Numbered from the stretch's first letter, positions 9,674 through 58,535 are shown. The stretch: 64,000 nucleotides of DNA from an uncultured Chloroflexia bacterium (GCA_963849495.1 CAWKHN010000015.1:294723-358722), one strand, 5' to 3'. Numbers and translations: made by a program. The notes: generated by a model from the letters alone, not told the origin.

Positions 9674-9723
9674 TTCGTCCCCGGCGCCGTGCCGCCGGCC
9701 GCCCTGCTGCCGCGACACGCGTT

Positions 9724-9893
9724 GCTGCCGTGACTCGCGTGGCAGCCTCACCCCTCGCACCACGCCCCACGCGCCACGACTCACGTGGCGAGTCAGGATG
9801 AGGTCCCGGCTGCGGCCTCGAGGCCGAATGTGCCCCTTCAGTGCGCCGCCACGCAGGCTGGGCCGCCGATTTGACACGCCGCGTGAGTCAGGC
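9724..9893. repeat. three palindromic TGACTCA/TGAGTCA-type motifs in the coxM-coxD intergenic region
   Basis: gctgccgtgactcgcgtggcagc (9724-9746); cacgactcacgtggcgagtcagg (9774-9796); cgccgcgtgagtcaggc (9878-9893). Confidence 0.6.
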
Positions 9894-10032
9894 TGTTGGG
9901 GCGAGGACCCGGCGATGACCCGGCGACGCCGCCGCGTGGACCCCGACGCCACCCCACCCCGCCGAGCCCCGCCGAGCCCCGCCGCGCGACGCGATCCGCC
10001 CACATCGCGGCAGCGGTGTAGCATCGCGGGCC

Positions 10033-11843: not shown

Positions 11844-11999
11844 CCGGCCCTGACCCAACAGCGCCGGGGACGTTCGGATCGGCCGGCCTCGGGGCTGGGC
11901 CAGAGGAGCAGGCGTGCTTGATCGGACAGATGATGCCGGATGGTCGGCTCCACTCGCGGTTGGTGAGGTTCCTGCCCGTGGGTCGCGCGCCCGTATCCT

Positions 12000-12407
12000 G
12001 TGGGCGTGGTTGCGCGGATGGTGCGAGTCGTGCGAGATCCCCGTCCCCGGGCACTGTCATGGCTCCCGGCTGCCGCGTGGGCCACGGGGATCTTCATCGC
12101 CTCCGCACAGGCGAACCTGCGGTTTGTGCCGGACGAGACCCTCGACTTCGTCGTCCGCAAGATCGGCCACATGGGGGTGTTCGGGATCCTGTTGCTTCTC
12201 CTGTGGTGGGCGCTGGCCACGACGACGGGCTGGCGCCGGCCGTGGGCGTGGGCATTCGTGCTCACGGTCCTCTACGCGGCGAGCGACGAGTGGCACCAGG
12301 GGTTCACGGCGGGGCGGCACCCGGCCGTCCTCGATGTCGGGATCGATGCGACAGGCGCGCTGATCGCGCTGGCGGCGGTCGGGCTGATCCTTGCCCGCCG
12401 CGCCTGA
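12000..12407 (+). CDS. VanZ-like family membrane protein
   Basis: 135 aa, multi-TM. SDEWHQGFTAGRHPAVLDVGIDATG is the VanZ signature region. The start could also be the GTG at 12030. Confidence 0.6.
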   Translation: MGVVARMVRVVRDPRPRALSWLPAAAWATGIFIASAQANLRFVPDETLDFVVRKIGHMGVFGILLLLLWWALATTTGWRRPWAWAFVLTVLYAASDEWHQGFTAGRHPAVLDVGIDATGALIALAAVGLILARRA

Positions 12408-12437
12408 CGGGATCACTACCTAGACCCGATCGAACCT

Positions 12438-12460
12438 GCTGACTCACGCAGCATGAGTCG
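12438..12460. repeat. palindrome CTGACTCA-n7-TGAGTCGG (member of the dispersed motif family)
   Basis: ctgactcacgcagcatgagtcgg. Confidence 0.6.
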
Positions 12461-12640
12461 GCCCAGGATCCGCCCCGGTCAGCCCCCGGTCAGCGCCGGG
12501 TCTGTGCCGAGGCCGACCCGGCTCGGCGGCCGGGCCGTCGGGACGGGACCTCCCGAGCGCGACCCCCGCGCCGCTGGACTACCCTGTGCGCCATGCGTGA
12601 GATGCGGCGTGCCTGAGATCTGCGAGCCGGGGCGGACGGC

Positions 12641-14029
12641 GTGACCGCCCCCGGGCCCGCCATCCTCCTCGCCCCCACGGGCGAGGCCATCGACGGCCGG
12701 CGGCTGCTGGCCGAGGCGGTCGGGTTCGGGCGGGCGCTGCGGACCGCGGGCCTTCAGGTGGATCTCGTCGCGGCGATCGACTTCGCGCGCGCCCTGGGGC
12801 TCGTCGACGTGGGCGAGCGAGCGACGGTCAAGGACGCGGGGGCGGCCGTGTTCGTGCGCCGCCGGGACGATCGCGAGACGTACGACCGCGTGTTCGACCT
12901 GTTCTGGCGGCGGCGCGGCCGCCAGCTGGCCCGGCCGCGCATCGATCCGACGGCGGCGCCCGACGCGGACCGCGAGGAGGGCGAGCCGGGCGCGACGGAC
13001 GAGCCGGGCGACGGCACCGAGGCCACCATGACGGAGCTCGCCCGGATGGGCATTCAGGTGGCGACCGATGCCGATGAGGGCGGCGAGATCGAGGGGGCGA
13101 CCATCTCGCCCGATGCCTACTCGCGCGGGGAGGTCCTCCGCCACCGTGACTTCGACCGGATGACGGCCGCCGAGCTGCGCGATGCCGAGCGCTTCGTGGA
13201 CCTGCTGCGCCCGAGGCTGGAGCGGCGCAAGACGCGTCGCCAGGAGCTGCACCCGCACGGCCGGCGCCTGGCGGCCCGCGCGATGTTCCGCCGCAACCTC
13301 GCCACCGGCGAGCTCACGGAATGGGTGTGGCGGCGGCAGGTTCGGGAGCCGCGCCAGCTCGTGGTGCTGTGCGACATCTCGGGCTCCATGGAACGCCATG
13401 CGCGCCTGCTGCTCCGGTTCATCCAGGCGCTCGCGCGGACCAACGAGGTGCGCACGGAGTCGTTCGTGTTCGGCACCCGGCTGACGCGGGTGACCCGGCT
13501 GCTCAAGGACCGCAACCGGGACCGGGCGCTGGAGCGGGTGGCCGATTCCGTCAACGACTGGGCGGGCGGCACCCGGATCGGGGAGTCGTTCCGCGACTTC
13601 AACCACCGCTGGGCGCGGCGCACGCTGCGGACCTCCGGGGTGGTGATCGTCGTGTCGGACGGCTGGGATCGCGGCGACCCGGCGCTGGTGGCCGCGGAGA
13701 CCGCCCGCCTGCGGCGCAACTGCCATCGCCTGGTGTGGCTCAACCCGCTGGCGTCGGCCCCGGGCTACCTGCCGCTCGCCGCCGGCATGAAGGCCGCCTA
13801 CCCGTACATCGACGACTTCCTGCCCGCCGGCACGCTCGGCTCGCTCGAGCGGCTGGGGGAGGTCCTTGCGGGCGCATCGCAGGGGACCGCGCGCAGGGGA
13901 TCGGCGGTCACCCACGCTGCGACCGTGGCCCCGTCGCTGGGCCTGTTTGCGCCGGAATCGGAGGCTCCGCGCGCGCTCGACGCGGCCCCCGGCGAAGCGG
14001 ACGACGCACGCGCCCGCCCCCTCACCTGA
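12641..14029 (+). CDS. coxE: VWA-domain protein CoxE (CODH maturation)
   Basis: 462 aa. LVVLCDISGSMERHARLL is the VWA_CoxE MIDAS-type motif. GTG start. Confidence 0.85.
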   Translation: MTAPGPAILLAPTGEAIDGRRLLAEAVGFGRALRTAGLQVDLVAAIDFARALGLVDVGERATVKDAGAAVFVRRRDDRETYDRVFDLFWRRRGRQLARPRIDPTAAPDADREEGEPGATDEPGDGTEATMTELARMGIQVATDADEGGEIEGATISPDAYSRGEVLRHRDFDRMTAAELRDAERFVDLLRPRLERRKTRRQELHPHGRRLAARAMFRRNLATGELTEWVWRRQVREPRQLVVLCDISGSMERHARLLLRFIQALARTNEVRTESFVFGTRLTRVTRLLKDRNRDRALERVADSVNDWAGGTRIGESFRDFNHRWARRTLRTSGVVIVVSDGWDRGDPALVAAETARLRRNCHRLVWLNPLASAPGYLPLAAGMKAAYPYIDDFLPAGTLGSLERLGEVLAGASQGTARRGSAVTHAATVAPSLGLFAPESEAPRALDAAPGEADDARARPLT

Positions 14030-14080
14030 CGCCCGAGAATCGACCCCGCAACACACGACCCCGCGAAGCCGGAGGACACG

Positions 14081-15268
14081 ATGCAGGAGCTGCTGGAGAC
14101 GCTGGACCGATGGCGCGCCGAGGACGTGGGCGTCGGCCGCGCGGTCGTGGTCCGGACGTTCGGCAGCGCCCCGCGGCCGGAGGGCGCCGTCCTTCTCGTG
14201 ACCGACGACGGCCGTCTGGCCGGCTCCGTGTCCGGCGGCTGCGTGGAAGGAGCGGCGGCCGAGGAGATCCATGTCGCGCGCGCGACCGGCCGGGAGCGGG
14301 TGATCCGCTACGGGATCAGCGACGAGCAGGCGTGGGACGTGGGGCTCGCCTGCGGCGGCACGATCGACGTCCTGGTCTCTCCCTGGGTGCCGGAGGTCGC
14401 GGCTGCGGCCGCCCGCGAGACGCGCGATGGCCTGGGCGACGGGCGCGCGATCGTGACGCCGCTGCCGGCCGATGCGCCGCCTCCGACGTTCGGCGCGCAC
14501 GCGCCGGGGCAGGGGAGCGAGCCGTCTTCGCCGCTCGTCGTGCACGACGACGGGCACCTGGACGGGTCGCTGGGCGATCCCGATGCCGATGCGGCGCTCG
14601 TCGCGGCAGCCCGCGATGCGCTGGCCCACGGCGTGTCGCGCACGGTCGAGATCGGCGGGCGCCAGCTGTTCGTCGAGGCGTATCCGATCCGGCCGCGACT
14701 GGTCGTCGTGGGGGCGGTCGAGGTGTCCCGGTTCCTGGTCCGGCTCGCGAAGGAGCTGGGCTACGAGACGGTGGTGATCGACGGGCGGGCGGCGTTCGCC
14801 ACGGAGGCCCGCTTCCCGGACGTGGACCGGCTGATCGTCGGCTGGCCGGACGAGGTGGCCGACGATATCGGGCTCGGACCGGCCGACGCGGTTGCGGTCC
14901 TCACCCACGACGTGAAGTTCGACGAACCGGCGATCGTCGCGGCGCTGGCCCGGGGCTGCCGCTATGTCGGCGCGGTCGGGTCGCGCAAGACGCAGGCGGA
15001 CCGGCGGGCGAGGTTGCTCGAGGCGGGCGTCGCGCCCGAGGACCTGGACCGGCTGCGGGGGCCGATCGGGCTCGATCTCGGCGGGCGGCTGCCGTCCGAG
15101 ACGGCGCTCGCGATCCTGGCCGAGATCGTCGCGGAACGGAGAGCCGGCACGGGGCGGCCGATGCGGGAGCTGGCCCGGGCTCGGGAAGCGGCTGCCGCGA
15201 CGGGTTCGGCGGCGGGCCCCACGGCGGCGGACACCGCGACAGCCACCGGCCCCGCGGTGGCCGGGTGA
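14081..15268 (+). CDS. coxI: XdhC/CoxI-family molybdenum cofactor insertion chaperone
   Basis: N-terminal XdhC_CoxI domain (RAVVVRTFGSAPRPEGAVLLVTDDGRLAGSVSGGCVE) plus a C-terminal Rossmann-like domain (VVVGAVEVSRFLVRLAKELGY). Confidence 0.85.
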   Translation: MQELLETLDRWRAEDVGVGRAVVVRTFGSAPRPEGAVLLVTDDGRLAGSVSGGCVEGAAAEEIHVARATGRERVIRYGISDEQAWDVGLACGGTIDVLVSPWVPEVAAAAARETRDGLGDGRAIVTPLPADAPPPTFGAHAPGQGSEPSSPLVVHDDGHLDGSLGDPDADAALVAAARDALAHGVSRTVEIGGRQLFVEAYPIRPRLVVVGAVEVSRFLVRLAKELGYETVVIDGRAAFATEARFPDVDRLIVGWPDEVADDIGLGPADAVAVLTHDVKFDEPAIVAALARGCRYVGAVGSRKTQADRRARLLEAGVAPEDLDRLRGPIGLDLGGRLPSETALAILAEIVAERRAGTGRPMRELARAREAAAATGSAAGPTAADTATATGPAVAG

Positions 15269-15909
15269 AGGTCGTCGCGATCGTCCTCGCCGCAGGCGCC
15301 AGCCGGCGCTTCGGATCGCCCAAGCTGCTCGCACCGCTCGACGGCCGGCCGCTGCTCCAGCACGTGCTCGACACCGTCGCGATGGCCAGGCTCGAGGACG
15401 TCGTCGTGGTCCTGGGCGACGAAGCTGTTGCCATCGAGGCGGCGATCGGCTGGCGCGGCGAGCGCCGGGTCGTCAACCCGAGGCCGCAGGACGGCCTGTC
15501 GAGCTCGCTGCGCGTGGGGCTGGACGCGGCGGCCGAGGATCCCGAGGTCGATGCCGTGCTCGTCGTGCTGGGCGATCAGCCGTGGCTCCGTCCGGAGGTC
15601 GTGGCCGAAGTGCTGGACGCCGCGACCGCCGGGACCGCCGTGACCGATGCCGCACTGCCGCCGGCCGACCCGGCGCCACCCCGGCCGATCATCCGCGTCC
15701 GGTACGCGGACGACGATGCGCCCAACCCGGTGCTCTTCCGGCGGACCGGGTGGGCGCTGGCGGCGGGTCTCGAGGGCGACCGCGGCTTCGGACCGTTGCT
15801 CGCCCGCCACCCGGACCTCGTGGAGGAGGTGCGCATCGGCGGCCGGAACCCCGACGTCGATACCCCGGCCGACCTCCCGATCGATCCGTCGACGGCGAGG
15901 CTGTCGTGA
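15265..15909 (+). CDS. mocA: MobA-like NTP transferase, probable CTP:molybdopterin cytidylyltransferase (MocA-like)
   Basis: GTG at 15265 overlaps the preceding stop (GTGA). VVAIVLAAGASRRFGSPKLLAPLDGRPLL is the nucleotidyltransferase N-terminal motif. The product is hidden inside the long ORF 13321..15909. Confidence 0.8.
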   Translation: MKVVAIVLAAGASRRFGSPKLLAPLDGRPLLQHVLDTVAMARLEDVVVVLGDEAVAIEAAIGWRGERRVVNPRPQDGLSSSLRVGLDAAAEDPEVDAVLVVLGDQPWLRPEVVAEVLDAATAGTAVTDAALPPADPAPPRPIIRVRYADDDAPNPVLFRRTGWALAAGLEGDRGFGPLLARHPDLVEEVRIGGRNPDVDTPADLPIDPSTARLS

Positions 15910-16766: not shown

Positions 16767-16840
16767 GGGCGGGGCCGGGCGGCTCGCCAGAGCGGCCTCC
16801 GGTGCGCGTGCCGAAACCTTGGTGAACCTCGGTTGACGGC

Positions 16841-16875
16841 TTTCGGATCGCGCGCGGATACTTTGGTCTCGCCAG
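16841..16875 (+). promoter_or_regulatory. candidate sigma-70-like promoter for the form I cox operon (TTGACG-n18-GATACT)
   Basis: ggTTGACGgctttcggatcgcgcgcgGATACTttgg, about 140 nt upstream of the coxM ATG. The RBS AAGGAGGG precedes the ATG at 17016. Confidence 0.3.
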
Positions 16876-17015
16876 AACCCCAACGTCCCCCAGCGCGACC
16901 GTGGCCGACGGTGACGGTCGCAACCCGATCGTCATGGCAACGCCGAGCCCGTCCCCCTGGGCCGGGCCCGACATCGGCTCCGCGCCCCAGGTGCGGAAAG
17001 GAGGGTTGGCAGCGC

Positions 17016-17888
17016 ATGATTCCCGGCCAGTTCGAGTACGTCCGTCCGGCGTCGCTGGATGAGGCGTTGCGCATCCTCAAGGAGCGCGAGGGGGAGGCGA
17101 AGATCCTCTCCGGGGGCTACAGCCTCATCCCTCTCATGAAGCTCCGGCTGGCACAGCCGGCCCTGCTGGTGGACATCCAGGCGGTCGGCGGTCTCAACGG
17201 CATCACGCGCACCGACACCGAGTGGCGGATCGGCGGCCGGACCACCCATCGGGCGATCCTCGAGAACGACGAGCTGACGGCCGGGCTCCCCATCGTCCAC
17301 GACGCGGCCGGTGGCATCGGCGACCCGCAGGTTCGCAACTGGGGAACGATCGGCGGCTCCTGCGCGCACGCGGACCCGGGCTCGGACTGGCCGGCCGTCC
17401 TGCTGTCCCTCGGCGCCTCGTTCGTGTGCCGCAGCGCGGACGGTGAGCGCGTGCTCCCGGCGCGCGGCTTCTTCCTGGACACGTTCCAGACCGGCATCGA
17501 GCCCACCGAGGTCCTCACCGAGGTGCGCATCCCGCGCGCCGCGGCGCACACCGGTTCCGCCTACGTCAAGCTGGAGCGGCGGGCCGGCGACTTCGCGACG
17601 GTCGGTGCCGCGGCCGTGCTCACGCTCGGTGGTGACGGCCGGATCGCCGCGGCGGGCATGGCGCTGACCGCCGTCGCGGACGCACCGTTCGCGGCAACGG
17701 ACGCCGAGGCGGCCCTGGTCGGGGAGGAGCCGGGCGAGGACACCTTCAAGACCGCGGCGGCCGCCGCATCGGCCCAGGCCCGTCCGGTGGCCGACAGCCA
17801 CGGCCCGGCCGATTACAAGCTGGCGATGGTCCGCGAGATCACGGTCAGGGCCCTGCGCCTGGCCGCGTCCCGGGCGCAGGACGCGTGA
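17016..17888 (+). CDS. coxM: CO dehydrogenase medium (FAD) subunit, form I cluster
   Basis: ORF 16833..17888. ATG at 17016 after [31 protein letters not shown]...[14 protein letters not shown]. Confidence 0.9.
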
Positions 17889-17901
17889 GAGGAGCGGATC
17901 G

Positions 17902-18408
17902 ATGAGCACCCAGCACATCTCGGTCACCGTCAACGGGGTGGCCCGCGAGGCCGACGTCGAGCCCCGCCTCCTGCTCGTCCACCTCCTCCGCGACGTGTTC
18001 GGTCTCACCGGCACGCACACCGGGTGCGACACGAGCAACTGCGGCGCCTGCACCATCCACGTGGACGGCCGGAGCGCGAAGTCGTGCACGATGCTGGCCG
18101 TCCAGGCGAGCGGCGCCTCGATCACCACGATCGAGGGCATGGAGCAGGGCGGCAAGCTTCACCCGCTCCAGCAGGCGTTCTGGGACCAGCACGGCCTCCA
18201 GTGCGGTTTCTGCACGCCGGGCATGATCATGGAGTCGGCCTGGATGCTGGCCCAGAACCCGGATCCCTCCGAGCAGGAGATCCGCGAGGGGATCGCCGGC
18301 AACCTGTGCCGGTGCACCGGCTACGTGAACATCGTCAAGGCGATCCAGCAGGGTGCCGCCGAGCTCCGGGCCGACACGGCCACGGGTGCCGGCGCGGCGT
18401 CCGCCTGA
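17902..18408 (+). CDS. coxS: CO dehydrogenase small (2Fe-2S) subunit, form I cluster
   Basis: [15 protein letters not shown] and [10 protein letters not shown]...CRCTGY. Confidence 0.9.
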
Positions 18409-18425
18409 GCCCCGAAGGAGACGAG

Positions 18426-20795
18426 ATGACGGAGGCGCAGGCACTCACGACGACCGCAGAGGTCTCGGGGATGGGTCACTCGATGAAGCGCAAGGAGGAC
18501 CCGCGCTTCATCCGGGGTCAGGGCGAGTACATCGAGGACGTCGTCCTGCCGAACATGGTCTGGATGGACATCGTCCGCAGCCCGTACGCCCACGCGAAGA
18601 TCAAGTCGATCGACGCCAGCGAGGCCCTGGCCATGCCGGGCGTGCTCGCGGTGATCACCGGCAAGGACCTCGAGAAGGCCGGTCTCCACTGGATGCCGAC
18701 CCTCGCCGGCGACAAGCAGATGGTGCTGCCGGTGGACACGGTGATGTACCAGGCCCAGGAGGTGGCGGCCGTCATCGCGACGACCCGCTACCAGGCGGCC
18801 GATGCGATCCAGGCGGTCCTCGTGGACTACGAGCCGCTGCCGGTGGTCGTCGATCCGTTCAAGGCGCTGCTGCCGGACGCGCCGGTGCTCCGCCCGGATC
18901 GCGGGCCGGACAAGGCCACCAACCATATCTGGCACTGGGAGTCGGGCGACAAGGACGCGACCGATGCGGCTCTCGCCGCATCGGACAAGGTCGTCCCGAT
19001 CGACGTCTACATCCCGCGCATCCACGTCTCGTCGATCGAGACCTGTGGCTGCATCGCGGACTGGAACCCCGTCCGCGCCCATCTCGACTTCCACGTCACG
19101 AGCCAGGCGGCGCACGTCTACCGGACGGTCATCAGCCTGGTCTCGGGCATCCCCGAATCGAGCATCCGGGTCAAGACGCACGACATCGGCGGCGGGTTCG
19201 GCGGCAAGGTGCCGGTCTACCCGGGTTATGTCATCGCGATCGTGGCCTCGCTGACGCTGGGGCGGCCGGTCAAGTGGATCGAGGACCGGTCCGAGAACCT
19301 GCAGGCCGATTCGTTCGCCCGTGACTACCACATCCACGCGGAGATGGGCCTCAGCAACGAGGGCCAGATCAACGGCCTGCGGGTCAAGACGCTCGCGGAC
19401 CACGGCTACACCGACGCGGCCGCCGATCCCTCGAAGTTCCCGGCCGGCCTGTTCAACGTGATCACCGGCTCCTACGACATGCCCACCGCGTTCGTCGAGG
19501 TGGACGCCGCCTACACCAACAAGCCGCCCGGCGGCGTCGCCTACCGCTGCTCGTTCCGCGTGACCGAGGCGGTCCACACCATCGAGCGGCTCGTCGACCA
19601 GGCGGCCCGCGAGATCGGCATGGACCCGGCTGCGTTCCGGATGAAGAACTTCATCCGGAAGGACCAGTTCCCGTACCACACGCCGACCGGCTGGGAGTAC
19701 GACTCGGGCGACTACCACACGGCACTGCAGAAGGCGCTGGACACGATCGGCTACGACGACCTGCGCAAGGAGCAGGCGGAGAAGCGCGCCCGCGGCGAGC
19801 TGATGGGCATCGGCATCTCGTCGTTCACGGAGATCGTCGGCGCCGGCCCGTCCCACGACTTCGACATCATCGGCATCAAGATGTTCGACTCGGCCGAGCT
19901 CCGGGTGCACCCGACCGGCTCGGCGATCCTCCGGCTCGGCGTCCAGAGCCAGGGCCAGGGCCATGAGACCACCTACGCGCAGATCGTCGCCGAGGAGCTC
20001 GGCATTCCGGCCTCGAAGGTGACGGTCGAGGAGGGCGATACGGACACCGCGCCGTACGGCCTCGGCACCTATGCCTCCCGGTCCACGCCGGTCGCCGGCG
20101 CGGCCACCGCCATCGCTGCGCGCAAGATCCGCGAGAAGACCCGCCACCTGGCCGCGCACCTGCTCGAGTGCTCGCCCAACGACCTCGAGTGGACGAACGG
20201 CAAGTGGAGCGTCACCGGCTCGCCGGACCGCTTCAAGACCATCGCGGAGCTTGCCTTCGCGGCCTACACCAATCATCCCGAGGGGATGGAGGCCGGCCTC
20301 GAGGCGGTCGACTACTACGACCCGCCCAACCTGACCTTCCCGTTCGGCAGCTACATCTGCGTCGTGGACATCGACAAGGGCACGGGGCAGGTGAAGATCC
20401 GGCGCTTCGTCGCGATCGATGACTGCGGCAACATCATCAACCCGATGATCGTGGACGGGCAGATCCACGGCGGCCTGACGATGGGCATGGCCCCGTCGCT
20501 GTACGAGGAGATCTCGTACGACGAGCAGGGCAACAACCTCGCCGGGACGTTCATGGACTACCTGCTGCCGACGGCGATGGAGACACCGTCCTGGGAGACC
20601 GGCAAGACGACCACCCCCTCGCCGCACCATCCGCTGGGCGCGAAGGGAGTGGGGGAGTCTGCGACCGTCGGCGCCCCGCCCGCCATCGCCAATGCCGTCG
20701 TGGACGCGCTCGCCCATCTCGGCGTCACCAACGTGGACATCCCGATCACGCCCCAGAAGGTGTGGCGGATCCTCCACGACAAGGGCGTGGTCTGA
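18426..20795 (+). CDS. coxL: aerobic CO dehydrogenase large subunit, form I (Mo-Cu type)
   Basis: ATG at 18426 after GAAGGAG. Active-site loop GGVAYRCSFRVTEA carries the form I VAYRCSFR signature; the Cys is the Cu ligand. Confidence 0.9.
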   Translation: MTEAQALTTTAEVSGMGHSMKRKEDPRFIRGQGEYIEDVVLPNMVWMDIVRSPYAHAKIKSIDASEALAMPGVLAVITGKDLEKAGLHWMPTLAGDKQMVLPVDTVMYQAQEVAAVIATTRYQAADAIQAVLVDYEPLPVVVDPFKALLPDAPVLRPDRGPDKATNHIWHWESGDKDATDAALAASDKVVPIDVYIPRIHVSSIETCGCIADWNPVRAHLDFHVTSQAAHVYRTVISLVSGIPESSIRVKTHDIGGGFGGKVPVYPGYVIAIVASLTLGRPVKWIEDRSENLQADSFARDYHIHAEMGLSNEGQINGLRVKTLADHGYTDAAADPSKFPAGLFNVITGSYDMPTAFVEVDAAYTNKPPGGVAYRCSFRVTEAVHTIERLVDQAAREIGMDPAAFRMKNFIRKDQFPYHTPTGWEYDSGDYHTALQKALDTIGYDDLRKEQAEKRARGELMGIGISSFTEIVGAGPSHDFDIIGIKMFDSAELRVHPTGSAILRLGVQSQGQGHETTYAQIVAEELGIPASKVTVEEGDTDTAPYGLGTYASRSTPVAGAATAIAARKIREKTRHLAAHLLECSPNDLEWTNGKWSVTGSPDRFKTIAELAFAAYTNHPEGMEAGLEAVDYYDPPNLTFPFGSYICVVDIDKGTGQVKIRRFVAIDDCGNIINPMIVDGQIHGGLTMGMAPSLYEEISYDEQGNNLAGTFMDYLLPTAMETPSWETGKTTTPSPHHPLGAKGVGESATVGAPPAIANAVVDALAHLGVTNVDIPITPQKVWRILHDKGVV

Positions 20796-20799
20796 GGCC

Positions 20800-21903
20800 A
20801 TGCCCGGACGAAGCCTGTTCCGACGCGTCGCCGAGCTCGAGGCCGCCGGGGGGACGTTCGCGGTCGCCACCGTGGTGGCGGTCCAGCGGCCGACCTCCGC
20901 CCGGCCCGGCGCGAGCGGCATCGTCCACCCGGATGGCACGATCGAGGGCTGGGTCGGCGGCAGCTGCGCCCAGCCCGTCGTCGTCCGCGAGGCCCTGCGG
21001 GCGCTCGTCGACGGTCATCCGCGCCTGCTCCGCCTCTCGAAGTCGGCACCGGCCGAGGGCCGGCGGGGGGACGGGGTGGTCGAGCTCGTGATGACCTGCC
21101 ACTCGGGGGGCACCCTGGAGATCTACGTGGAACCGCATCTTCCGGCGCCCTCGCTGTGGGTCGCCGGCACGACGCCCATCATCGGCGCGCTCGTCGCGCT
21201 GGGCTCGGCGACCGGCTGGCGCGTGTCGGTGTTCGACCCGATCGCCGACGTCGACGCCTTCCCGGACGCGGAGCGCGTCTCGACCGACACCGCCCTCGGG
21301 CGGATCGATCCGGAGCTCTCCCCATACGTGGTCGTGGCGACGCAGGGGATCTGGGATGAGGAGGCGGTGGCCGCCGCGTTGCGCCGCGAGGTCTCGTACG
21401 TTGGCCTGGTTGCCTCGCCGACGCGCGCGAGCGTGGTGCGGACGTGGCTGCGCGAGGAGGCGGGCATCCCCGAGGAGCGGCTGGCCGCGCTGCGGGCCCC
21501 GGCCGGTCTCGACCTGGGTGCCGAGACGCCCGAGGAGATCGCGCTCTCGATCCTCGCGGAGCTCGTCCAGGTGCGTCGTGGCCGGGCGCCGTTCATCGCA
21601 AAGCCGGGGCCGGCCACGCTCGTCGGGGAGGCGGCGGCCGTCGCGCCGCTGCAGCCCGTCGTCGACGACATCGTGCTGCTCGATCCGGTGTGCGGGATGA
21701 CGGTCGATCGCGCCCATGCCCGGCATCTCGCCGAGCACGAGGGCACGGTCTACGCGTTCTGCTCGATGGGCTGCCGCACGGCGTTCATCAAGGAGCCCGG
21801 CGCGTACGTCACCGCCGCGTCCAGCGGCGGTCCATCGGGTGCTGCCGTGTCCGAGGAGGGCTCGTCCGGCGGCGACTCGTCCACGTCCACCACAGGGGCC
21901 TGA
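20800..21903 (+). CDS. coxF: XdhC/CoxF-family cofactor-insertion protein fused to a C-terminal YHS/TRASH metal-binding domain
   Basis: ORF 20692..21903 with ATG at 20800. The N-terminus is XdhC_CoxI-like (FAVATVVAVQRPTSARPGASGIVHPDGTIEGWVGGSCAQ) and a Rossmann domain follows. The C-terminus reads DPVCGMTVDRAHARHLAEHEGTVYAFCSMGCRTAF, a YHS-type Cys motif. Confidence 0.8.
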   Translation: MPGRSLFRRVAELEAAGGTFAVATVVAVQRPTSARPGASGIVHPDGTIEGWVGGSCAQPVVVREALRALVDGHPRLLRLSKSAPAEGRRGDGVVELVMTCHSGGTLEIYVEPHLPAPSLWVAGTTPIIGALVALGSATGWRVSVFDPIADVDAFPDAERVSTDTALGRIDPELSPYVVVATQGIWDEEAVAAALRREVSYVGLVASPTRASVVRTWLREEAGIPEERLAALRAPAGLDLGAETPEEIALSILAELVQVRRGRAPFIAKPGPATLVGEAAAVAPLQPVVDDIVLLDPVCGMTVDRAHARHLAEHEGTVYAFCSMGCRTAFIKEPGAYVTAASSGGPSGAAVSEEGSSGGDSSTSTTGA

Positions 21904-51962: not shown

Positions 51963-52916
51963 TTGCCGGTCCGCGGCCGCTGGCGTACCGGTGGCCGCTG
52001 CTATGATTCGGGCTGTCCGCCGACGCTGCCCAACACCTTTCCCGGAGGACGACCACTGGATCCAGACGAGCAGGCTTCCGAAACCGAGCGTCCCGCCGCC
52101 GATCCCGGACACGCCGCGCGCGGCGACGCTCCGCCGGGGCTTCGCGCCCAGCTCGGCGCCACGAAAGCGGCCGTCCTGGCATTGCTGCGCGCGCACGTCG
52201 ACCTGGCGAAGGCCGAGGCCGACCAGATCAAGGGCGAGGTGGCCCGGGCGGCCCTGTTCGCAGGCATCGCGTTCGCCTGCCTGTTCCTGCTCGGGTTCCT
52301 GCTGCCGATTGGCCTGATCCTGTTCACCGGGGAGTGGGTGTTCGGATCGATCGGGTGGGGCCTGCTCCACGGCACGGAGATGCTCATCGCGATTGCCGTT
52401 CTTGCCGTTCTGCTGGCGCTTCGGACCAGGGGCATGCTCATGGATCTGTTGATCGCGACGGTCATCGGGCTGGTCGCCTCCGTGATCCTGGGACCGAACC
52501 TGCCGAACGAGCTGTGGCGGCGGCTCGGTGACGCCCTCAACCTGGGCGACGCCGCCTGGCGACCGCTGGCATCGGGCACCCTGGCCATGGCCGTCGTCGG
52601 TGGGCTTGTTGGAGTGCTGCTGGGTGCCCGGGCGGGTGGCGGCGGACCGGCCGTTGGCGGCCTCGTCGCCGGCGCCGTGCTCGGGGCGTCGATTGGCGCG
52701 TTCTCGGCCATCACCTTCGGCTGGCGGGTCGGTGTCGCACTGGGTGTGGCCATCGGGCTGGCCGCGTGGCCGATCCTCATGGGTGTGACAGCGGCCCGCG
52801 CAGGCATCGACACCGATGCCCTCAAAGCGCGTTTCTGGCCACAGACGACTATCGACACCACGAAGGAGACGATCGAGTGGGCGAAGGCACGATCGCCGCT
52901 CGGGCCGACGTCCTAG
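51963..52916 (+). CDS. actinobacterial holin-X (phage holin family) membrane protein
   Basis: ALLRAHVDLAKAEADQIKGEVARAALFAGIAFACLFLLGFLL is the characteristic holin-X N-terminal region, followed by multiple TM segments. The start is uncertain. Confidence 0.5.
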   Translation: MPVRGRWRTGGRCYDSGCPPTLPNTFPGGRPLDPDEQASETERPAADPGHAARGDAPPGLRAQLGATKAAVLALLRAHVDLAKAEADQIKGEVARAALFAGIAFACLFLLGFLLPIGLILFTGEWVFGSIGWGLLHGTEMLIAIAVLAVLLALRTRGMLMDLLIATVIGLVASVILGPNLPNELWRRLGDALNLGDAAWRPLASGTLAMAVVGGLVGVLLGARAGGGGPAVGGLVAGAVLGASIGAFSAITFGWRVGVALGVAIGLAAWPILMGVTAARAGIDTDALKARFWPQTTIDTTKETIEWAKARSPLGPTS

Positions 52917-53515
52917 CGGCGCGAGCCGCCCTGGACGACGAGCTCGAACGGCTCGAAGCATCGGCCCGCGCGGCCGTGGACATCCCGGCGAAGGTGCGAC
53001 GCAACCCGGTCAGGACTGCGGGCCTGGCGGCCGGCGCGGTCTTCCTGTTCGCGGGAGGCCCAGCGAAGGTGCTGCGCGGCGCCCGGAACGCGATCTTCGG
53101 CAAGCCGGATCCGCTCCCGAAGTCGATGCTGCCCAAGGAGATCGACAAGGCGCTCGGCGAGCTGGGAGACGACGGGAAGCGCGTCCGGGGCACGATCGAG
53201 CGCGAGTTCGCCGCGTACCTCAAGGACAAGGCCCCGGAGCGCAAGGAACGGGGCCTTGGCGCGGTTGCCGCGTTGCTCCTCGCATCGGCAGGCAAGCCCG
53301 TTGTGCAGCGCTATGGCCGGCAGCTCGTGGAGCAGCTGTTCTCACCGGACGGTCCAGGATTCGCGGCCCAGCTGGACAAGGTTCGCGCGCGGCGCGCTGG
53401 ACGCGACGGCGAGACGACGGACCGGGACACGGGCGGGGCGGCCCCCACGCCGACGAGCCCCACGACGACGAGCCCCGGGGCCCCGAAGGCCGGCCCGTCG
53501 GACGGCGCCGCATAG
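52877..53515 (+). CDS. DUF3618-like coiled-coil protein (holin-X partner)
   Basis: GTG at 52877 after AAGGAG overlaps the upstream gene. Its last 12 codons lie inside the 142-bp repeat. Confidence 0.5.
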   Translation: MGEGTIAARADVLAARAALDDELERLEASARAAVDIPAKVRRNPVRTAGLAAGAVFLFAGGPAKVLRGARNAIFGKPDPLPKSMLPKEIDKALGELGDDGKRVRGTIEREFAAYLKDKAPERKERGLGAVAALLLASAGKPVVQRYGRQLVEQLFSPDGPGFAAQLDKVRARRAGRDGETTDRDTGGAAPTPTSPTTTSPGAPKAGPSDGAA

Positions 53516-53620
53516 CCGACGTCCCGGCGCCGCGCACGGGGACCCCTGCCGGTCGGCGCTGGTAGGCGAGGTCGGGGTCGAACCGACACGTTCCTCACGG
53601 AGCACCGGCTCCCAAGGCCG
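53479..53620. repeat. 142-bp direct repeat, copy 1 (contains a tRNA-like T-arm/acceptor/ACCA fragment on the minus strand)
   Basis: Matches 56963..57104 with 2 mismatches. The reverse complement of 53560-53589 is GTGTCGGTTCGACCCCGACCTCGCCTACCA. Confidence 0.85.
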
Positions 53621-54073
53621 AAACGGGCCTGACTGGCCGAAACGGGCCTGACGGCAGGTATATCGATGCACCCCGCTGCAGCAGATCGGCACGCAATTGG
53701 CGAAGCGAGCCGCGCGCCGGCGGACGCATGACAAGTCGTAATGACAGAACGCTGTTGGACCCGCACGGTGCTGGCGAGTGGCAAGACGCCTGCCATTTCA
53801 TCCTTCGCGCCGCGCGCAGGATGTCGACGGTTCGGTCGTTCGGGGGCGATCGCGGGCGACATAAGGAACAGACGCCAATGGGCTCTGGCGAGGTGGTCGC
53901 TGCGTCAACCAGCGGCAGACCGTCTGCAGGATTGGGCGGCTCCCGGTGGGGCGTCCACGTGGCCGTGCCGGCAGACAGCCCCACGTTCGAGAAGCATCCG
54001 CGGCTGACCGCCTGCCTCGGGGCTTCGGAGAACCGCCTGCGGGCCGCGCTCGACATGCTCGCGGTGGCACGGG

Positions 54074-56461
54074 ATGGAGCAGCCGGCGAGGGCGAGGATC
54101 GCGCAGGGGCGGGACGTGGCAACGCAGGTTGAACCGCAGATGGACGCCAACTCGGAGGCCCGCTACCGGGGCCTGCTCGAGGCGGCCCCCGACGCGATGG
54201 TCGTGGTCAACCAGCGCGGCGAGATCGTCCTGCTCAACGTCCAGGCCGAGAAGCAGTTCGGCTACAGCCGCGATGAGCTCCTCGGGCAGCCCATCACGAA
54301 CATCATCCCGGAAGGCTTCGCCGAGCGGATCATCGCCGACGACCTGCGCTCGGCGGCCGACGCCCTGGCCCAGGTCATCGGCACCGGGATCGAGCTCGTC
54401 GCCCGCCGACGGGACGGCACCGAGTTCCCGATCGAGATCATGCTCAGCCCCCTCGAGAGCGCCGAGGGGATCCTCGTCACGGCAGCCATCCGTGACATCA
54501 GCGCGCGGCAGGCGGCGGAGGAAGAGCTGCGTCGCACTTCCTCGTATCTCGAGAACCTGATCGACTACGCGAACGCGCCGATCATCGTGTGGGACCCCGA
54601 CCAGCGGATCACGCGGTTCAACCATGCGTTCGAGCGGCTGACGCAACGTCGGGCGGACGAGGTCCTGGGTCAGCAGCTGGGCATGCTGTTCCCCGATCAG
54701 TCTCGCGCGGAGTCGCTCGCGAGGATCGAGCTCGCTGTCCGGGGCACGGGCCTGGAGAGCCACGAGATCCCGATCCTTCGCGCGGACGGTGATGTGCGGG
54801 CCGTCCTGTGGAGCTCGGCGAACATCTATGACACGCCGAGTGGTGGCGGGCTCCTCGCCGTCATCGCGCAGGGCCAGGACATCACGGCGAGCCGAAAGGC
54901 CGAGTGGCATGTCGTCCAGGCCGAGGCCCGCTACCGGGGCCTGCTCGAGGCGGCCCCCGACGCGATGGTCGTGGTCAACCAGCGCGGCGAGATCGTCCTG
55001 CTCAACGTCCAGGCCGAGAAGCAGTTCGGCTACAGCCGCGATGAGCTCCTCGGGCAGCCCATCACGAACATCATCCCGGAAGGCTTCGCCGAGCGGATCA
55101 TCGCCGACGACCTGCGCTCGGCGGCCGACGCCCTGGCCCAGGTCATCGGCACCGGGATCGAGCTCGTCGCCCGCCGACGGGACGGCACCGAGTTCCCGAT
55201 CGAGATCATGCTCAGCCCCCTCGAGAGCGCCGAGGGGATCCTCGTCACGGCAGCCATCCGTGACATCAGCGCGCGGCGGGCGGCGGAGGAGGCCCGCTTC
55301 GTCGAGAAGGAGCTCGCCGTCGTCACCCTGAACAGCATCAGTGACGCCGTGATCAGCGTGGATATGTCCGGCGGGGTCACGCTTCTCAACCTCGTCGCCG
55401 AGACGATGACCGGCTGGTCGTCACGGGAGGCAGCGGGTCGACCCGTCGCCGACGTGCTCCGCGTCCTGGATGCGACGACGCGCGAGAGCGTCGCGATTCC
55501 AACGGAGGCCGCAGTCCGAAACGACCGCACCGAGCATCTTCCGTCGGGCTGCCTCCTCATCCGCCGCGATGGCCACGAGATCGCCATCGCCGACTCGGTA
55601 TCACCGCTCCACGACCGCGACGATAACGTCATAGGCGCGGTGATCGTCGCTCGCGACGAGAGCGTGGCACGCGAGATGGCGAGGCGAGTACGCGCCGTCG
55701 GTGACGAGCTCGAACGGAGTAACCGGGAGCTGGACGACTTCGCGGCGATCGCGTCGCATGACCTGCAGGAGCCGCTTCGGAAAATTCGGGCATTCGGGGA
55801 TCGGCTCGCCGAGCATTCCACGAGCGCGCTCGACGAGGAGGCTCGGGACTACCTCCGGAGAATGACGGATGCCGCCGGCAGGATGCAGACCTTGATCGCC
55901 GACCTCCTGGAGTACTCACAGGTGACGATCCGACCTGAGCCGCCGCAGCCGGTGGATCTGGGCCAGGTCGTCGCCGAGGTGCTCTCCGACCTCGACGAGG
56001 GCATCCGGTCGAGACATGGGAGCGTGATCGTCGGTCGGCTTCCCACCGTGTCGGCAAGCCCTCTGCAGATGCGCCAGCTGTTCCAGAACCTGATCGCAAA
56101 CGCCCTCAAGTTTCATCCGGACGGTGTTGCCCCGGAAGTGCACGTGGACGCGACCGCGCGCGACGATGGCGCAGGAGCAGGAGAGCGCCGCCATGGCTCT
56201 CCGGTCTGGGCGATCTCCGTGAGCGACAACGGGATTGGCTTCAGCGAGAAGTACGCCGAGCGGATCTTTGCGCCGTTCCAGCGCCTCAACGGACGTCAGA
56301 CCTTCGAGGGCGCGGGGATGGGCCTGGCAATCTGCCGCCGGATCGTGACCCTGCGTGGAGGGACGATCACCGCCACGTCACACCCTGGCGCAGGCGCCAC
56401 GTTCGTCGTCACGCTTCCCGGCATCCCGCCGGGCGCCGCCGCAAGCGGACCTGCGGGATGA
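54074..56461 (+). CDS. multi-PAS sensor histidine kinase (PAS x ~4, HisKA, HATPase_c)
   Basis: HisKA H-box IASHDLQEPLRKI. HATPase motifs DNGIGF and GAGMGLAICRRIV. Confidence 0.85.
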   Translation: MEQPARARIAQGRDVATQVEPQMDANSEARYRGLLEAAPDAMVVVNQRGEIVLLNVQAEKQFGYSRDELLGQPITNIIPEGFAERIIADDLRSAADALAQVIGTGIELVARRRDGTEFPIEIMLSPLESAEGILVTAAIRDISARQAAEEELRRTSSYLENLIDYANAPIIVWDPDQRITRFNHAFERLTQRRADEVLGQQLGMLFPDQSRAESLARIELAVRGTGLESHEIPILRADGDVRAVLWSSANIYDTPSGGGLLAVIAQGQDITASRKAEWHVVQAEARYRGLLEAAPDAMVVVNQRGEIVLLNVQAEKQFGYSRDELLGQPITNIIPEGFAERIIADDLRSAADALAQVIGTGIELVARRRDGTEFPIEIMLSPLESAEGILVTAAIRDISARRAAEEARFVEKELAVVTLNSISDAVISVDMSGGVTLLNLVAETMTGWSSREAAGRPVADVLRVLDATTRESVAIPTEAAVRNDRTEHLPSGCLLIRRDGHEIAIADSVSPLHDRDDNVIGAVIVARDESVAREMARRVRAVGDELERSNRELDDFAAIASHDLQEPLRKIRAFGDRLAEHSTSALDEEARDYLRRMTDAAGRMQTLIADLLEYSQVTIRPEPPQPVDLGQVVAEVLSDLDEGIRSRHGSVIVGRLPTVSASPLQMRQLFQNLIANALKFHPDGVAPEVHVDATARDDGAGAGERRHGSPVWAISVSDNGIGFSEKYAERIFAPFQRLNGRQTFEGAGMGLAICRRIVTLRGGTITATSHPGAGATFVVTLPGIPPGAAASGPAG

Positions 56462-56913
56462 GGCGCACCCCGGGGGCAGGCATCCTGTGTGTCGAGGACG
56501 ACTCCGACGATCGCCTGCTCGTCGAGATGGCGCACCGCGACAGCGGCGTCGTCAACCAGCTGGAATTCGTTGCCGACAGCGACGAGGCCCTCGAGTATCT
56601 GCGCCGTGTCGGCCGCTACGCGGATCGGGCCGGAAAGGACCAGCCCGGGATCATCCTGCTCGACCTGAACCTGCCGGGGACGGACGGCCGTGAAACCCTC
56701 GTGATCCTCAAGGCAGACCCTACATTGCGGCGCATCCCCGTGATTGTCCTGACAACCTCGTCGGCCCGGCGTGACATCGCCGCGAGCTATGACAATGGCG
56801 CCAACTCCTACATCGTCAAGCCCACGGCATTCGCCGGCCTTGTCCGTCTCTTCGAGCGCCTGTGCGACTACTGGTTCGAGATCGGGTCGCTGCCGCCGGA
56901 GGCCGGAACGTGA
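56458..56913 (+). CDS. single-domain CheY-like response regulator
   Basis: Receiver domain with ...ILLDLNLPGTDG... and KP (IVKPTAF). ATGA overlap with the kinase stop. Confidence 0.85.
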   Translation: MRRTPGAGILCVEDDSDDRLLVEMAHRDSGVVNQLEFVADSDEALEYLRRVGRYADRAGKDQPGIILLDLNLPGTDGRETLVILKADPTLRRIPVIVLTTSSARRDIAASYDNGANSYIVKPTAFAGLVRLFERLCDYWFEIGSLPPEAGT

Positions 56914-56962
56914 AAGCGCCATCACCCGCCCGACTAGCGGGTGCGCCGCGTCATCAGGCCGC

Positions 56963-57104
56963 GGCCCCGAAGGCCGGCCCGTCGGACGGCGCCGCATAGC
57001 CGACGTCCCGGCGCCGCGCACGGGGACCCCTGCCGGTCGGCGCTGGTAGGCGAGGTCGGGGTCGAACCGACACGTTCCTCACGGAACACCGGCTCCTAAG
57101 GCCG
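56963..57104. repeat. 142-bp direct repeat, copy 2
   Basis: See copy 1. Confidence 0.85.
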
Positions 57105-57208
57105 GCGCGTCTGCCATTTCGCCACTCGCCCGAGAGGGAGTCTAGCGCTCGGGACCCGCTGGGCCCCGCCCCCGGTGCTGCGCGAACCCGCGAACGAAGG
57201 CGTGCCTT

Positions 57209-58429
57209 CTAGGCTCCTCCGGACGCACCGGCGACCTGCCGCCCGGCAAGCCAGACCGAGGCGATGCGGTCGGGGAGCGTGTCGAGCGCGTAGGGGTCAC
57301 CGTCCACGACGACGAAGTCGGCCAGCTTGCCGGGCTCGATCGTGCCCCGCTTTCCGTCCACGCCCATGAGCTGGGCCGCGCTCCGTGTCGTCGCCTCCAG
57401 GACGGCGCCGGGCGACATGCCCAGCCCGGCCATCAGCGCCAGCTCCCGGAGGTTCTGGCCGTGGGGCGTGACCCCCGTGTCGGTGCCCATGGCGATTCGG
57501 ACCCCGGCCTCGATCGCGCGGCGGACGGCCGTGCGGTGCTGGTCGATCGTGGCGCGGGCCTTCTCGATCACGTTGGGCGCGATCGTGGCCCCGGCCTCGG
57601 CCGCATCGATCACGCCCTGCGGAGCGACGAGCGTCGGTACCAGCCAGGTGCCCTTCCGGAGCATGAGCTCGATGCCCTCCTCGTCGAGGAAGATCCCGTG
57701 CTCGATCGAGCGGATGCCGGACCGCACGGCGTTCTTGATGCCGTCGGCCGCCTGCGCGTGGGCCATCACGAACATTCCTGCGGCGGTCGCCTCCTCGACG
57801 AGCACGTCGAGCTCGGCGGGGCGGAAGTGGGCATGGGACGGATCGTCACGCGGGGAGGACACGCCGCCCGACGTCGCGACCTTGACCACGTCGGCACCGT
57901 CTCGATGGAGCTCGCGGATCTTGCGCCGCATCTCGTCGGGGCCGTCCACGATCGCGCTGGGCATGCCCGGGTAGGCGTTCAGCAGCGGGATGTCCACGCC
58001 CGACACGTACCAGTCGTCGCCGTGGCCGCCGGTCTGGCTGAGCATCGTGAGGCTGATCTGCATCCTCGGCCCGGGGATCAGCCCGGTCTCAACGGCCTCC
58101 TTGATGCCGAGGTCTGCCCCGCCCGCGTCGCGGATGGAGGTGATCCCGGACCGGAGCGTCGTCGCGAGGTTGCGCGCTGCCACGTAGAAGCGGAGGGAGA
58201 AGGGCTGGTTCGCCATTCGCCAGGCGTCGACGCTGTCGAGCACGACGTGGACGTGCGTGTCGAAGAAGCCCGGGAGCAGCGTCCGGCCGCCGAGATCGAC
58301 CTCCTCGTCGCCGTCCAGCCGCGGGCCGACGTCGACGATGCGACCGTCCTCGACGCTGACATCGGCGGGACCCGGATCCGTGCCCGTGCCGTCGAACACC
58401 GAACCGCCGCGAAAGACCGTGCGCGTCAT
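57209..58429 (-). CDS. amidohydrolase family metal-dependent hydrolase
   Basis: HVHV metal-binding block near the N-terminus, and MGTDTG / LADFVVVDGDP C-terminal motifs. Confidence 0.8.
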   Translation of the reverse strand: MTRTVFRGGSVFDGTGTDPGPADVSVEDGRIVDVGPRLDGDEEVDLGGRTLLPGFFDTHVHVVLDSVDAWRMANQPFSLRFYVAARNLATTLRSGITSIRDAGGADLGIKEAVETGLIPGPRMQISLTMLSQTGGHGDDWYVSGVDIPLLNAYPGMPSAIVDGPDEMRRKIRELHRDGADVVKVATSGGVSSPRDDPSHAHFRPAELDVLVEEATAAGMFVMAHAQAADGIKNAVRSGIRSIEHGIFLDEEGIELMLRKGTWLVPTLVAPQGVIDAAEAGATIAPNVIEKARATIDQHRTAVRRAIEAGVRIAMGTDTGVTPHGQNLRELALMAGLGMSPGAVLEATTRSAAQLMGVDGKRGTIEPGKLADFVVVDGDPYALDTLPDRIASVWLAGRQVAGASGGA

Positions 58430-58535
58430 GGCGCCTCCCTGATGATCGCTGAGCAACCCAGTCTACGAGCGTGCCCCGCGATCCGCGATGCGTCGGGCTC
58501 CGCCCCCGCCGGCCGACCCACCCTATACTCGCCCG

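Follow-up and report, generated by a model that had tools for sequence, protein, structure and literature searches.

An integrase-less sensor-kinase islet probably lodged in a tRNA-Leu(TAG) gene of an uncultured Limnocylindria-type bacterium

Introduction

Genomic islands in the Islander collection have their two ends marked by a regenerated transfer RNA (tRNA) gene, or tDNA, on one side and a displaced fragment of that gene on the other, the fragment being a 3' one in 3760 of 3919 islands; the insertion points fall into two sublocation classes, anticodon-centred and T-stem, the former being used by about half of the islands (PMC4383910). Here, we describe an element of this kind in a stretch of 64,000 nucleotides (nt) from an uncultured Chloroflexia bacterium (GCA_963849495.1, CAWKHN010000015.1:294723-358722; hereafter the window, with all positions counted from its first letter), where two 142-bp direct repeats enclose the genes for a sensor histidine kinase and a response regulator. 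We consider it probable, at roughly 70%, that these repeats are the two ends of a horizontally acquired, integrase-less sensor-kinase islet of 3.34 kb that sits in the 3' part of a tRNA-Leu(TAG) gene and has been reduced from an island of ~8 kb.

The locus shares with the tDNA islands catalogued by Islander and TIGER a regenerated tRNA gene at one end (57044-57131) and a co-oriented 3' fragment at the other (53560-53620), and this is the arrangement, from regenerated tRNA through island to displaced fragment, by which islands in tRNA genes are usually recognized. As in Islander islands, the boundary lies at the anticodon stem, a canonical sublocation for tyrosine integrases, the cargo has no relation to the tRNA, and the island, which bears evidence of horizontal origin, is missing from the orthologous site in relatives. 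Unlike them, the islet has no integrase gene, so that the Islander filter would reject it, measures just 3.3 kb and has an identity block that overshoots the tRNA end by 81 nt, reaching the 3' end of a chromosomal gene. Every structural feature by which Islander recognizes an island is present save the integrase gene, and the element is an integrase-less, decayed or cis-mobilizable-type islet.

Remnants of this decayed type are best known from the streptococcal ICESt1/ICESt3 family, where integrative and conjugative or integrative and mobilizable elements (ICEs and IMEs) that have decayed and keep both attachment (att) sites, attL and attR, are termed cis-mobilizable elements (CIMEs; PMC5704250). 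The islet resembles them in being flanked by 142-nt att-type repeats, in having neither integration nor transfer genes and in its internal deletions, and by analogy it could plausibly be mobilized only by a recombinase from another element; it differs from them in that neither an ancestral nor a partner ICE or IME was found for it, in its phylum and in its target, tRNA-Leu. Among actinomycete elements, SLP1 resides in tRNA-Tyr with ~112 bp of identity and pSAM2 in tRNA-Pro with 58 bp, and elements of their type, 11-17 kb in length, combine int and xis with replication and transfer functions. High GC content of the host and a block of identity that extends from the anticodon region past the tRNA 3' end are common to these elements and the islet, whereas int, xis, replication and transfer genes are all lacking from the islet. 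Within the Chloroflexota, McMurdie and colleagues reportedly described, in 2011, Dehalococcoides islands at the 3' end of the tmRNA gene, with ~20-nt direct repeats, a site-specific recombinase of their own, adaptive cargo and the same site in use across strains. Such ssrA-specific genomic islands of Dehalococcoides are the subject of PMC3146451. They are the nearest described analogue in the phylum and resemble the islet in adjoining the 3' end of a gene for a small structured RNA; the islet departs from them in its target, tRNA-Leu(TAG), its 142-nt repeat and its want of a recombinase. The type of insertion, an integrase-less or decayed tDNA island, is therefore well known, and the present case is of descriptive value and would not surprise a specialist in mobile elements.

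Two copies of a tRNA-Leu segment bracket the islet

The direct repeats, at 53479-53620 and 56963-57104, are 142 nt each at a spacing of 3484 nt and differ at two positions (53602 g versus 57086 a, and 53613 c versus 57097 t), in agreement with the coordinates, length and number of differences given in an initial annotation of the window. Each copy is made up of 61 nt from the 3' part of a tRNA-Leu gene and 81 nt of downstream flank. The tRNA part starts at the second anticodon-stem base and covers the anticodon loop, the long variable arm, the T arm, the 3' strand of the acceptor and the CCA, the alignment (A3) placing the start of the identity at the second base of the 5' strand of the anticodon stem. 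The initial annotation had rightly recognized the T arm, acceptor and CCA in both copies, but it underestimated how far each copy reaches, and its statement that no matching 5' tRNA half exists is wrong for copy 2. The 5' strand of the acceptor, the D arm and the first base of the anticodon stem are all encoded in the 27 nt beyond that copy (57105-57131). Copy 2 is thus continuous with the 5' part of an entire tRNA-Leu(TAG) gene (minus strand, 57044-57131), which was called by ARAGORN and matches Rfam RF00005 at 53.4 bits (E 1e-9; gathering score 29). This gene, the sole tRNA or Rfam match in the window, is also the intact counterpart of the repeat's 3' end that the annotation had proposed to seek across the genome, and it lies at the locus itself.

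Copy 1 gave no tRNA match in ARAGORN, nor in Rfam even at E<=1, and is ruled out as a cryptic tRNA; a covariance-model scan for a full tRNA thus succeeds at copy 2 and not at copy 1. Since an intact tDNA together with a displaced co-oriented 3' fragment is what defines tDNA islands (PMC4383910), the full tRNA at copy 2 strengthens the interpretation of the locus as an integration site. Both substitutions sit in copy 1, one of them changing the anticodon from TAG to TGG and the other introducing a mismatch that breaks the variable-arm stem, and the tRNA 3' half of copy 2 is identical to the tRNA-Leu(TAG) genes of four relatives (L062, L118, L121 and L213, the prefix L denoting the loci fetched for comparison), which makes copy 1 the derived copy. 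Copy 1 is accordingly a displaced, non-functional and already decaying 3' fragment of tRNA-Leu, and copy 2 is part of what looks, from its sequence, to be a functional tRNA-Leu(TAG) gene. The initial annotation had proposed that an ancient att remnant was reused in a cassette insertion, and att-type boundaries at a tRNA 3' end do bracket a cassette; an ancient orphan relic, in contrast, fits neither the intact tRNA at copy 2 nor the divergence of the copies, since only two differences in 142 nt mark the last event as recent.

The 81-nt part of the repeat takes in the end of a neighbouring gene. As had been noted, copy 1 opens with the final 12 codons, and the stop codon (53513-53515), of the gene for a 212-amino-acid (aa) protein (52877-53515). 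The label DUF3618 then given to that gene finds no support: the protein has no Pfam match at E<=5 and no PHROG match, and none of 120 homologues carries a precomputed Pfam domain. This non-tRNA part of the repeat could not be aligned with L062 or L118 and reaches only ~85% identity in L213, and a 42-mer spanning its junction with the tRNA had 0 exact matches in JGI metagenome contigs. As the flank is absent or diverged in relatives, an att-like repeat that reaches into the neighbouring gene dates the last event to this lineage.

Several other kinds of repeat-bounded element can be set aside. The 142-nt unit has exactly two copies within the window and its 81-nt flank part has no counterpart in 160 related loci, which rules out a repetitive extragenic palindromic (REP) element or other dispersed intergenic repeat, the generic element that the initial annotation had weighed against its own proposal. 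An insertion sequence (IS) or composite transposon is excluded by the lack of a transposase and, among the pairs listed, of terminal inverted repeats, as well as by a flanking repeat that is 142 nt long and tRNA-derived. A prophage or phage satellite is likewise rejected, PHROGs yielding nothing beyond a single weak match (E 0.025) whose family has no known function. Neither the 3' 30-mer of the tRNA nor the leader of the island had a match in IMG/VR (0 each).

Empty sites in close relatives

Three close relatives (L213, L118 and L212) have an empty, uninterrupted site, with no kinase, no repeat and the tRNA converging on the 212-aa gene; they supply the comparison, suggested by the initial annotation, with related genomes lacking the kinase/receiver pair. 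The flank gene and the amidohydrolase are 82% and 89% identical (aa) in L213, where 22 nt separate the gene stop from the tRNA 3' end. The corresponding values for L118 are 79% and 91%, with 85% for tig and a gap of about 50 nt, and L212 has a flank gene of 81% identity and a gap of 46 nt. Removing one repeat copy and the insert in silico gives exactly the architecture of the empty sites (alignment A3): copy 2 tracks them rightward into the 5' half of the tRNA, copy 1 tracks them leftward into the gene, and divergence sets in at the repeat boundary.

One of these loci also illustrates a more general caution. At 8830-10372 of L212, tig is split over several frames (tblastn pieces 8879-9274, 9309-9623 and 9713-10156), probably as a result of long-read indel errors rather than because it is a pseudogene, and gene calls in such assemblies should be treated with care.

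Related islands and horizontal spread

A 331-kb contig from a metagenome-assembled genome (MAG), L202, carries a ~8-kb cluster that follows immediately on the 3' end of an intact tRNA-Leu(TAG) gene and has tig on its other side. Its genes encode a PAS-EAL protein, a PAS-rich protein, a fusion of response regulator (RR), PAS and histidine kinase (HK) domains (RR-PAS-HK), an RR and an RR-GAF protein. At the far end, 35 nt ahead of the tig start, lies a 30-nt remnant of the tRNA-Leu 3' end in which 25 of 31 positions match, including CTCGCCTACCA. L203, from the same sample as L202 and from another lineage, has the C-terminus and stop of a homologue of the 212-aa gene, followed by a degenerate remnant (...CCGCCTACCA), the leader and the cluster as in L202. 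Some 4-8 kb past its RR-GAF gene, at 12023-15835, L203 further encodes an rve-family (IS-type) transposase and a 767-aa RHS/YD-repeat protein; its island may be larger and composite, with a far end beyond the fetched locus.

The islet is 84-91% identical in nucleotides and 83-88% in amino acids to the islands of L202 and L203, far above the core-gene identities between L202 and the window (tig 69%, cinA 65-69%, the 212-aa gene 48% and a holin-like gene 41% aa), and a difference of this size, even when set against tig alone, points to horizontal spread. A ~8-kb signalling island thus appears to spread horizontally among Limnocylindria, always directly 3' of tRNA-Leu(TAG). The tRNA of L202 is inverted relative to that of the window and its displaced remnant adjoins tig, whereas in the window and in L203 the remnant adjoins the 212-aa gene; with far-side flanks that differ in this way, the tRNA segment is the only sequence common to the insertion sites. 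No empty-site relative of L202, by which the ends of its island might be fixed, was found among the fetched loci.

These comparisons also bear on descent. Were the kinase/regulator cluster ancestral and inherited vertically, the relatives with empty sites would have lost it and the repeats would be a by-product of an inversion that flipped the tRNA. Inverting a block of tRNA, island and remnant of the L202 type would in fact yield the gene order of the window and L203, and both orientations of the tRNA are common in the clade, but inversion would not duplicate 81 nt of the flank in direct orientation, and further observations argue against this history: L118, L213 and L212 are much nearer to the window in core genes than L202 is and yet have no island, the island is more similar to those of L202 and L203 (83-88% aa) than is the conserved chaperone gene tig (69% aa), and the fragment copy is absent from 78 of 78 complete metagenomic contexts of tRNA-Leu(TAG). 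We regard vertical descent as highly unlikely.

The recurrence of the architecture has a similar bearing on the assembly itself. Only one assembly of the locus is known, a MAG contig of 508,549 nt, and an internal repeat of 355 nt in the kinase gene is suspiciously exact, as might be expected if island-bearing and empty haplotypes had been joined into a chimera or a repeat had been collapsed or duplicated. However, the repeat copies differ at two positions, and these differences are disruptive and confined to the non-functional copy, as expected of a real locus; an independent Logan short-read contig (L081), assembled from another read set, reproduces the junction between the regulator and copy 2 and breaks inside the repeat, as it would at a true repeat; the succession of remnant, leader, island and tRNA recurs in L202; and the PAS repeat pair of the kinase is found also in L202, L203 and L204. 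An artefact of this kind seems to us extremely improbable.

Other genes of the same type, and other cargos at the same place, were seen in the fetched loci. The closest homologues of the regulator (81-89% aa) belong to an HK-RR-RR-GAF cluster in L208 and L209, directly upstream of tRNA-Ser(TGA) (L208 3130-3198 and L209 3252-3337, followed in L209 by dnaJ and trpE/G/D), and this cluster may be the native chromosomal home of the signalling module. The slot 3' of tRNA-Leu(TAG) is occupied in L062 (11343-13230) by an unannotated open reading frame (ORF) of ~1.6 kb (~540 aa) with no flanking repeats, in L121 and L157 (about 3.9 kb) by genes for a 487-aa membrane protein and a 574-aa putative diguanylate cyclase, the latter judged by eye, again with no repeats, and in L133 (about 3.1 kb) by two small ORFs, also with no repeats. 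Unrelated small cargos in these four loci show the slot to be a general hot spot of gene gain.

Gene content of the islet

The islet proper, 53621-56962, comprises 3.34 kb with a PAS histidine kinase gene, a CheY-like regulator gene and gene remnants, as identified with Pfam (Table 1). Its GC content of 0.680, against a window mean of 0.713, places it in the lowest 5% of equal-sized windows.

Table 1. Features of the tRNA-Leu(TAG) locus and the islet, in window coordinates
Feature	Position	Strand	Basis and remarks
Left-flank gene, 212-aa hypothetical protein	52877-53515	+	conserved; identical to P0241
Repeat copy 1, attR-like end	53479-53620	-	flank 53479-53559 (81 nt) and tRNA-Leu fragment 53560-53620 (61 nt)
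GC-rich hairpin	53524-53562, duplicated at 57008-57046	.	between flank-gene stop and tRNA 3' end; ViennaRNA
19-nt tandem duplication	53616-53652	.	GGCCGAAACGGGCCTGACT x1.9, spans the copy 1/islet junction; Tandem Repeats Finder (TRF)
Non-coding leader	53681-53877	+	near-palindrome ATGACAAGTCGTAATGAC; alignment A2; blastn 76-81% to L202/L203
PAS-EAL gene remnant	53878-54054	+	first 59 codons, remainder deleted
PAS x4-HisKA-HATPase histidine kinase	54074-56461	+	Pfam; deposited call starts at 54140, 773 aa; P0002 100% identical
Exact 355-nt internal repeat, PAS-encoding	54155-54509 and 54923-55277	+	within the kinase gene, abrupt boundaries
Single-domain CheY-like response regulator	56458-56913	+	Pfam PF00072; overlaps kinase stop by 4 nt
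RR-GAF gene start, truncated	56910-56927	+	first few codons; local alignments (L202, L204, L209) stop at 56915-56926
Repeat copy 2, attL-like end	56963-57104	-	flank duplicate 56963-57043 (81 nt) and tRNA 3' part 57044-57104 (61 nt)
tRNA-Leu(TAG), integration target	57044-57131	-	ARAGORN; Rfam RF00005
Right-flank gene, amidohydrolase	57209-58456	-	Pfam; followed by tig, clpP and clpX

The non-coding leader has counterparts at about 3990-4186 of L202 and at 177-378 of L203, and a pattern search of the 213 fetched loci found its sequence ATGACnnGTCGTnATGAC only in the window, L202 and L203. Conservation of this sort makes it a candidate operator or promoter region; a sigma-70 consensus was not found in it. 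The PAS-EAL remnant that follows is 58% identical over 59 aa to the product of L202 4187-6217 (BLASTP, E 8e-10), with which it is collinear by blastn.

The kinase gene joins, in one reading frame, two genes that L202 and L203 carry separately, residues 1-392 corresponding to the PAS-rich gene (85-86%) and residues 409-781 to the C-terminus of the RR-PAS-HK gene (83-88%). Besides its own protein, the matches listed for the kinase were multi-PAS proteins at most 53% identical to it, with no close full-length homologue among them. The two PAS-encoding repeat units within it are 100% identical in the window, 99.7% in L203 (2678-3031/3446-3799) and 96.8% in L202 (6574-6941/7342-7718), and the pair exists also in L204; between genomes the units are only ~91% identical. 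This pattern in non-adjacent repeats looks like concerted evolution through gene conversion.

The regulator has Limnocylindria homologues of 81-89% aa identity, and in all relatives (L202-L211) it is followed by RR-GAF. Only the start of the latter gene is left in the islet, and the 35-nt stretch between it and copy 2 (56928-56962) is of unmatched origin. Relative to the L202 and L203 islands, the islet has therefore undergone three deletions: PAS-EAL was cut to 59 codons, the PAS-rich and RR-PAS-HK genes were fused, and RR-GAF was cut after a few codons.

Two non-coding features stand at or near the copy 1 end. The 19-nt tandem duplication that the initial annotation had seen after copy 1 was recovered by TRF with a period of 19, 1.9 copies and 100% matches; its first 5 nt are the final 5 nt of copy 1, and it occurs once in the window and is not conserved in L202 or L203. 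The hairpin between the stop of the 212-aa gene and the tRNA 3' end has a minimum free energy of -23.8 kcal/mol on the plus strand and -23.0 on the minus strand (ViennaRNA), and may act as a bidirectional terminator; a T-run terminator consensus was not found there, and scans of the region for sigma-70 promoters and intrinsic terminators gave nothing above shuffled expectation.

Across the islet, searches with Pfam (E<=5) and PHROGs (E<=1), taking in all spare ORFs, found no integrase, xis, transposase or other recombinase, and no relaxase or transfer gene, in line with the initial annotation's report of an insert without an integrase. Two candidates for relics of lost functions were rejected. 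The 453-nt spacer 53621-54073 holds no integrase pseudogene and is in part the 5' remnant of PAS-EAL, and a D-arm-like motif, ctgccatttc, at 53786-53800 (matching 57111-57120) is not a relic of the tRNA 5' half, as it lies within the leader and has diverged in L202 and L203 (alignment A2).

Formation of the islet

The structure would be accounted for if a circular form had integrated through a single, Campbell-type crossover in the 3' segment of the tRNA, with catalysis by a recombinase that has since been lost or that was supplied in trans, as for a cis-mobilizable element. The 81-nt extension is lineage-specific, which indicates that the island-side copy was made from this same locus, and the last event would then have been recombination between two copies of the locus and not primary integration from a foreign attP. 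Such an event could have begun with imprecise excision of the flank, the fragment and the islet as far as the RR-GAF start, as a 3,484-bp circle joining 53479 to 56962, and ended with re-insertion of that circle into an empty site by site-specific or homologous recombination; an equivalent unequal exchange would be a second route. The first of these routes would at the same time account for the missing RR-GAF gene.

A number of observations weigh against an integrated island of this origin. The 142-nt identity block passes the end of the tRNA by 81 nt, which is longer than usual and calls for a secondary event. No recombinase that might have catalysed a site-specific reaction was found in the islet, among 40 ORFs of the window with coding potential supported by GC content at third codon positions (GC3), or in the related islands, where the called genes of L202 and L203 (16-20 kb examined) include no integrase or conjugation genes and, apart from the rve transposase of L203, about 4 kb past RR-GAF, the last gene of the signalling cluster, no other recombinase gene. 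The L202 remnant begins at the T stem and not at the anticodon stem, so that the junctions are not uniform, and the ~60 nt beside the crossover (53621-53680) are not conserved among the three islands, unlike the shared functional attP arm that would be expected. The compositional deviation of the islet is mild, the Logan contig confirms the regulator/copy 2 junction and the junction between copy 1 and the islet has no independent confirmation, and no same-species genome with an empty or alternative site was obtainable.

Several of these points would be equally at home in an account in which no site-specific recombinase ever took part and host homologous or illegitimate recombination made the structure. 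The RecA pathway could have inserted a circular or transformed fragment in Campbell fashion, using the tRNA segment and flank as portable homology; alternatively, flank, fragment and islet could have been duplicated in tandem and then reduced by deletion between the tRNA-derived repeats, in a lineage already in possession of a longer island. The lack of an integrase in the three related islands and the window fits such an account, as does the lineage-specific flank of 81 nt within the repeat, which is explicable only by recombination between two copies of the locus; the 60 nt next to the junction are unconserved between islands, and the junction positions of the window and L202 differ. The three further deletions and fusions within the islet indicate that illegitimate recombination has been active here, and gene conversion of the PAS repeats in the kinase appears to be ongoing. 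Yet the homology shared across lineages is limited to ~30-60 nt of tRNA, a short length for RecA to drive insertion efficiently; the boundary coincides exactly with one edge of the anticodon stem and, in L202, with that of the T stem, the two canonical sublocations of integrases; and the 3' fragment has the canonical co-orientation with the tRNA. We therefore think that host recombination without any integrase is an unlikely source of the structure, if one to be taken seriously, and continue to favour a tDNA island that has lost, or borrows, its recombinase.

It is doubtful, though conceivable, that the islet belongs to something broader, namely a family of integrase-free signalling cassettes in Limnocylindria that target tRNA-Leu(TAG), are composed of leader, PAS-EAL, PAS-HK, RR and RR-GAF and use the tRNA 3' segment as their sole attachment sequence. 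The catalyst of such cassettes would be an unlinked chromosomal recombinase acting in trans, or host homologous recombination. If such a family existed, the tRNA would be a standing docking site for the swapping of sensory modules, and the 19-nt tandem repeat and palindromic leader would be binding sites for a recombinase or regulator.

Chromosomal setting

Judged by the flanking amidohydrolase, the host is a high-GC member of the Chloroflexota of the Limnocylindria or 'Limnocylindrales' type. The gene order cinA, holin-X-like gene, 212-aa gene, tRNA-Leu(TAG), (amidohydrolase), tig, clpP and clpX is found clade-wide. Between the 212-aa gene and tig, the tRNA occurs in both orientations, one in L083, L090, L094, L102, L202 and others and the other in the window, L118, L212 and L213, and across Limnocylindria only a tRNA-bearing segment of ~100-200 nt appears to have been flipped.

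Only the window, L062, L118 and L213 have the amidohydrolase gene in the interval that separates tig from the 5' end of the tRNA, its orthologues in the last three being 89-91% identical (aa), and in other relatives tig lies within 140-500 nt of the tRNA; this restricted distribution marks the gene as a second lineage-specific insertion at the locus. On the other side, directly before copy 1, a 15-nt tandem repeat (CCCCACGACGACGAG x2.3, 53443-53476) encodes the repetitive Pro/Thr-rich C-terminal tail of the 212-aa protein, a tail whose length varies among homologues.

Exact-protein look-up found no record of the amidohydrolase, the deposited kinase (P0002) or a 134-aa ORF, and the kinase, the regulator and the 212-aa flank gene were each found in one assembled contig. 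Elsewhere in the window, 4709-9673 and 16833-21903 hold two paralogous clusters of the molybdenum-hydroxylase type (CO dehydrogenase/xanthine dehydrogenase), with 2Fe-2S, Mo-cofactor-binding and FAD subunits, and between them, at 10033-15268, are genes for AAA (CoxD-like), VWA CoxE-like and XdhC accessory proteins.

Concluding remarks

On the favoured interpretation, the islet is a clear case of the small tRNA-linked islets by which modules for two-component and cyclic di-GMP signalling pass from one uncultured soil member of the Chloroflexota (Limnocylindria) to another, and several related islands, which form a small signalling family, were uncovered alongside it. Mobile elements have hardly been described in Limnocylindria, according to a full-text literature search combining that name with genomic island, and island finders that filter on an integrase would miss elements of this type. 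Should a recombinase acting in trans come to light, genetic work on the group could use the 142-bp att sequence and the tRNA-Leu(TAG) site as a natural landing pad.

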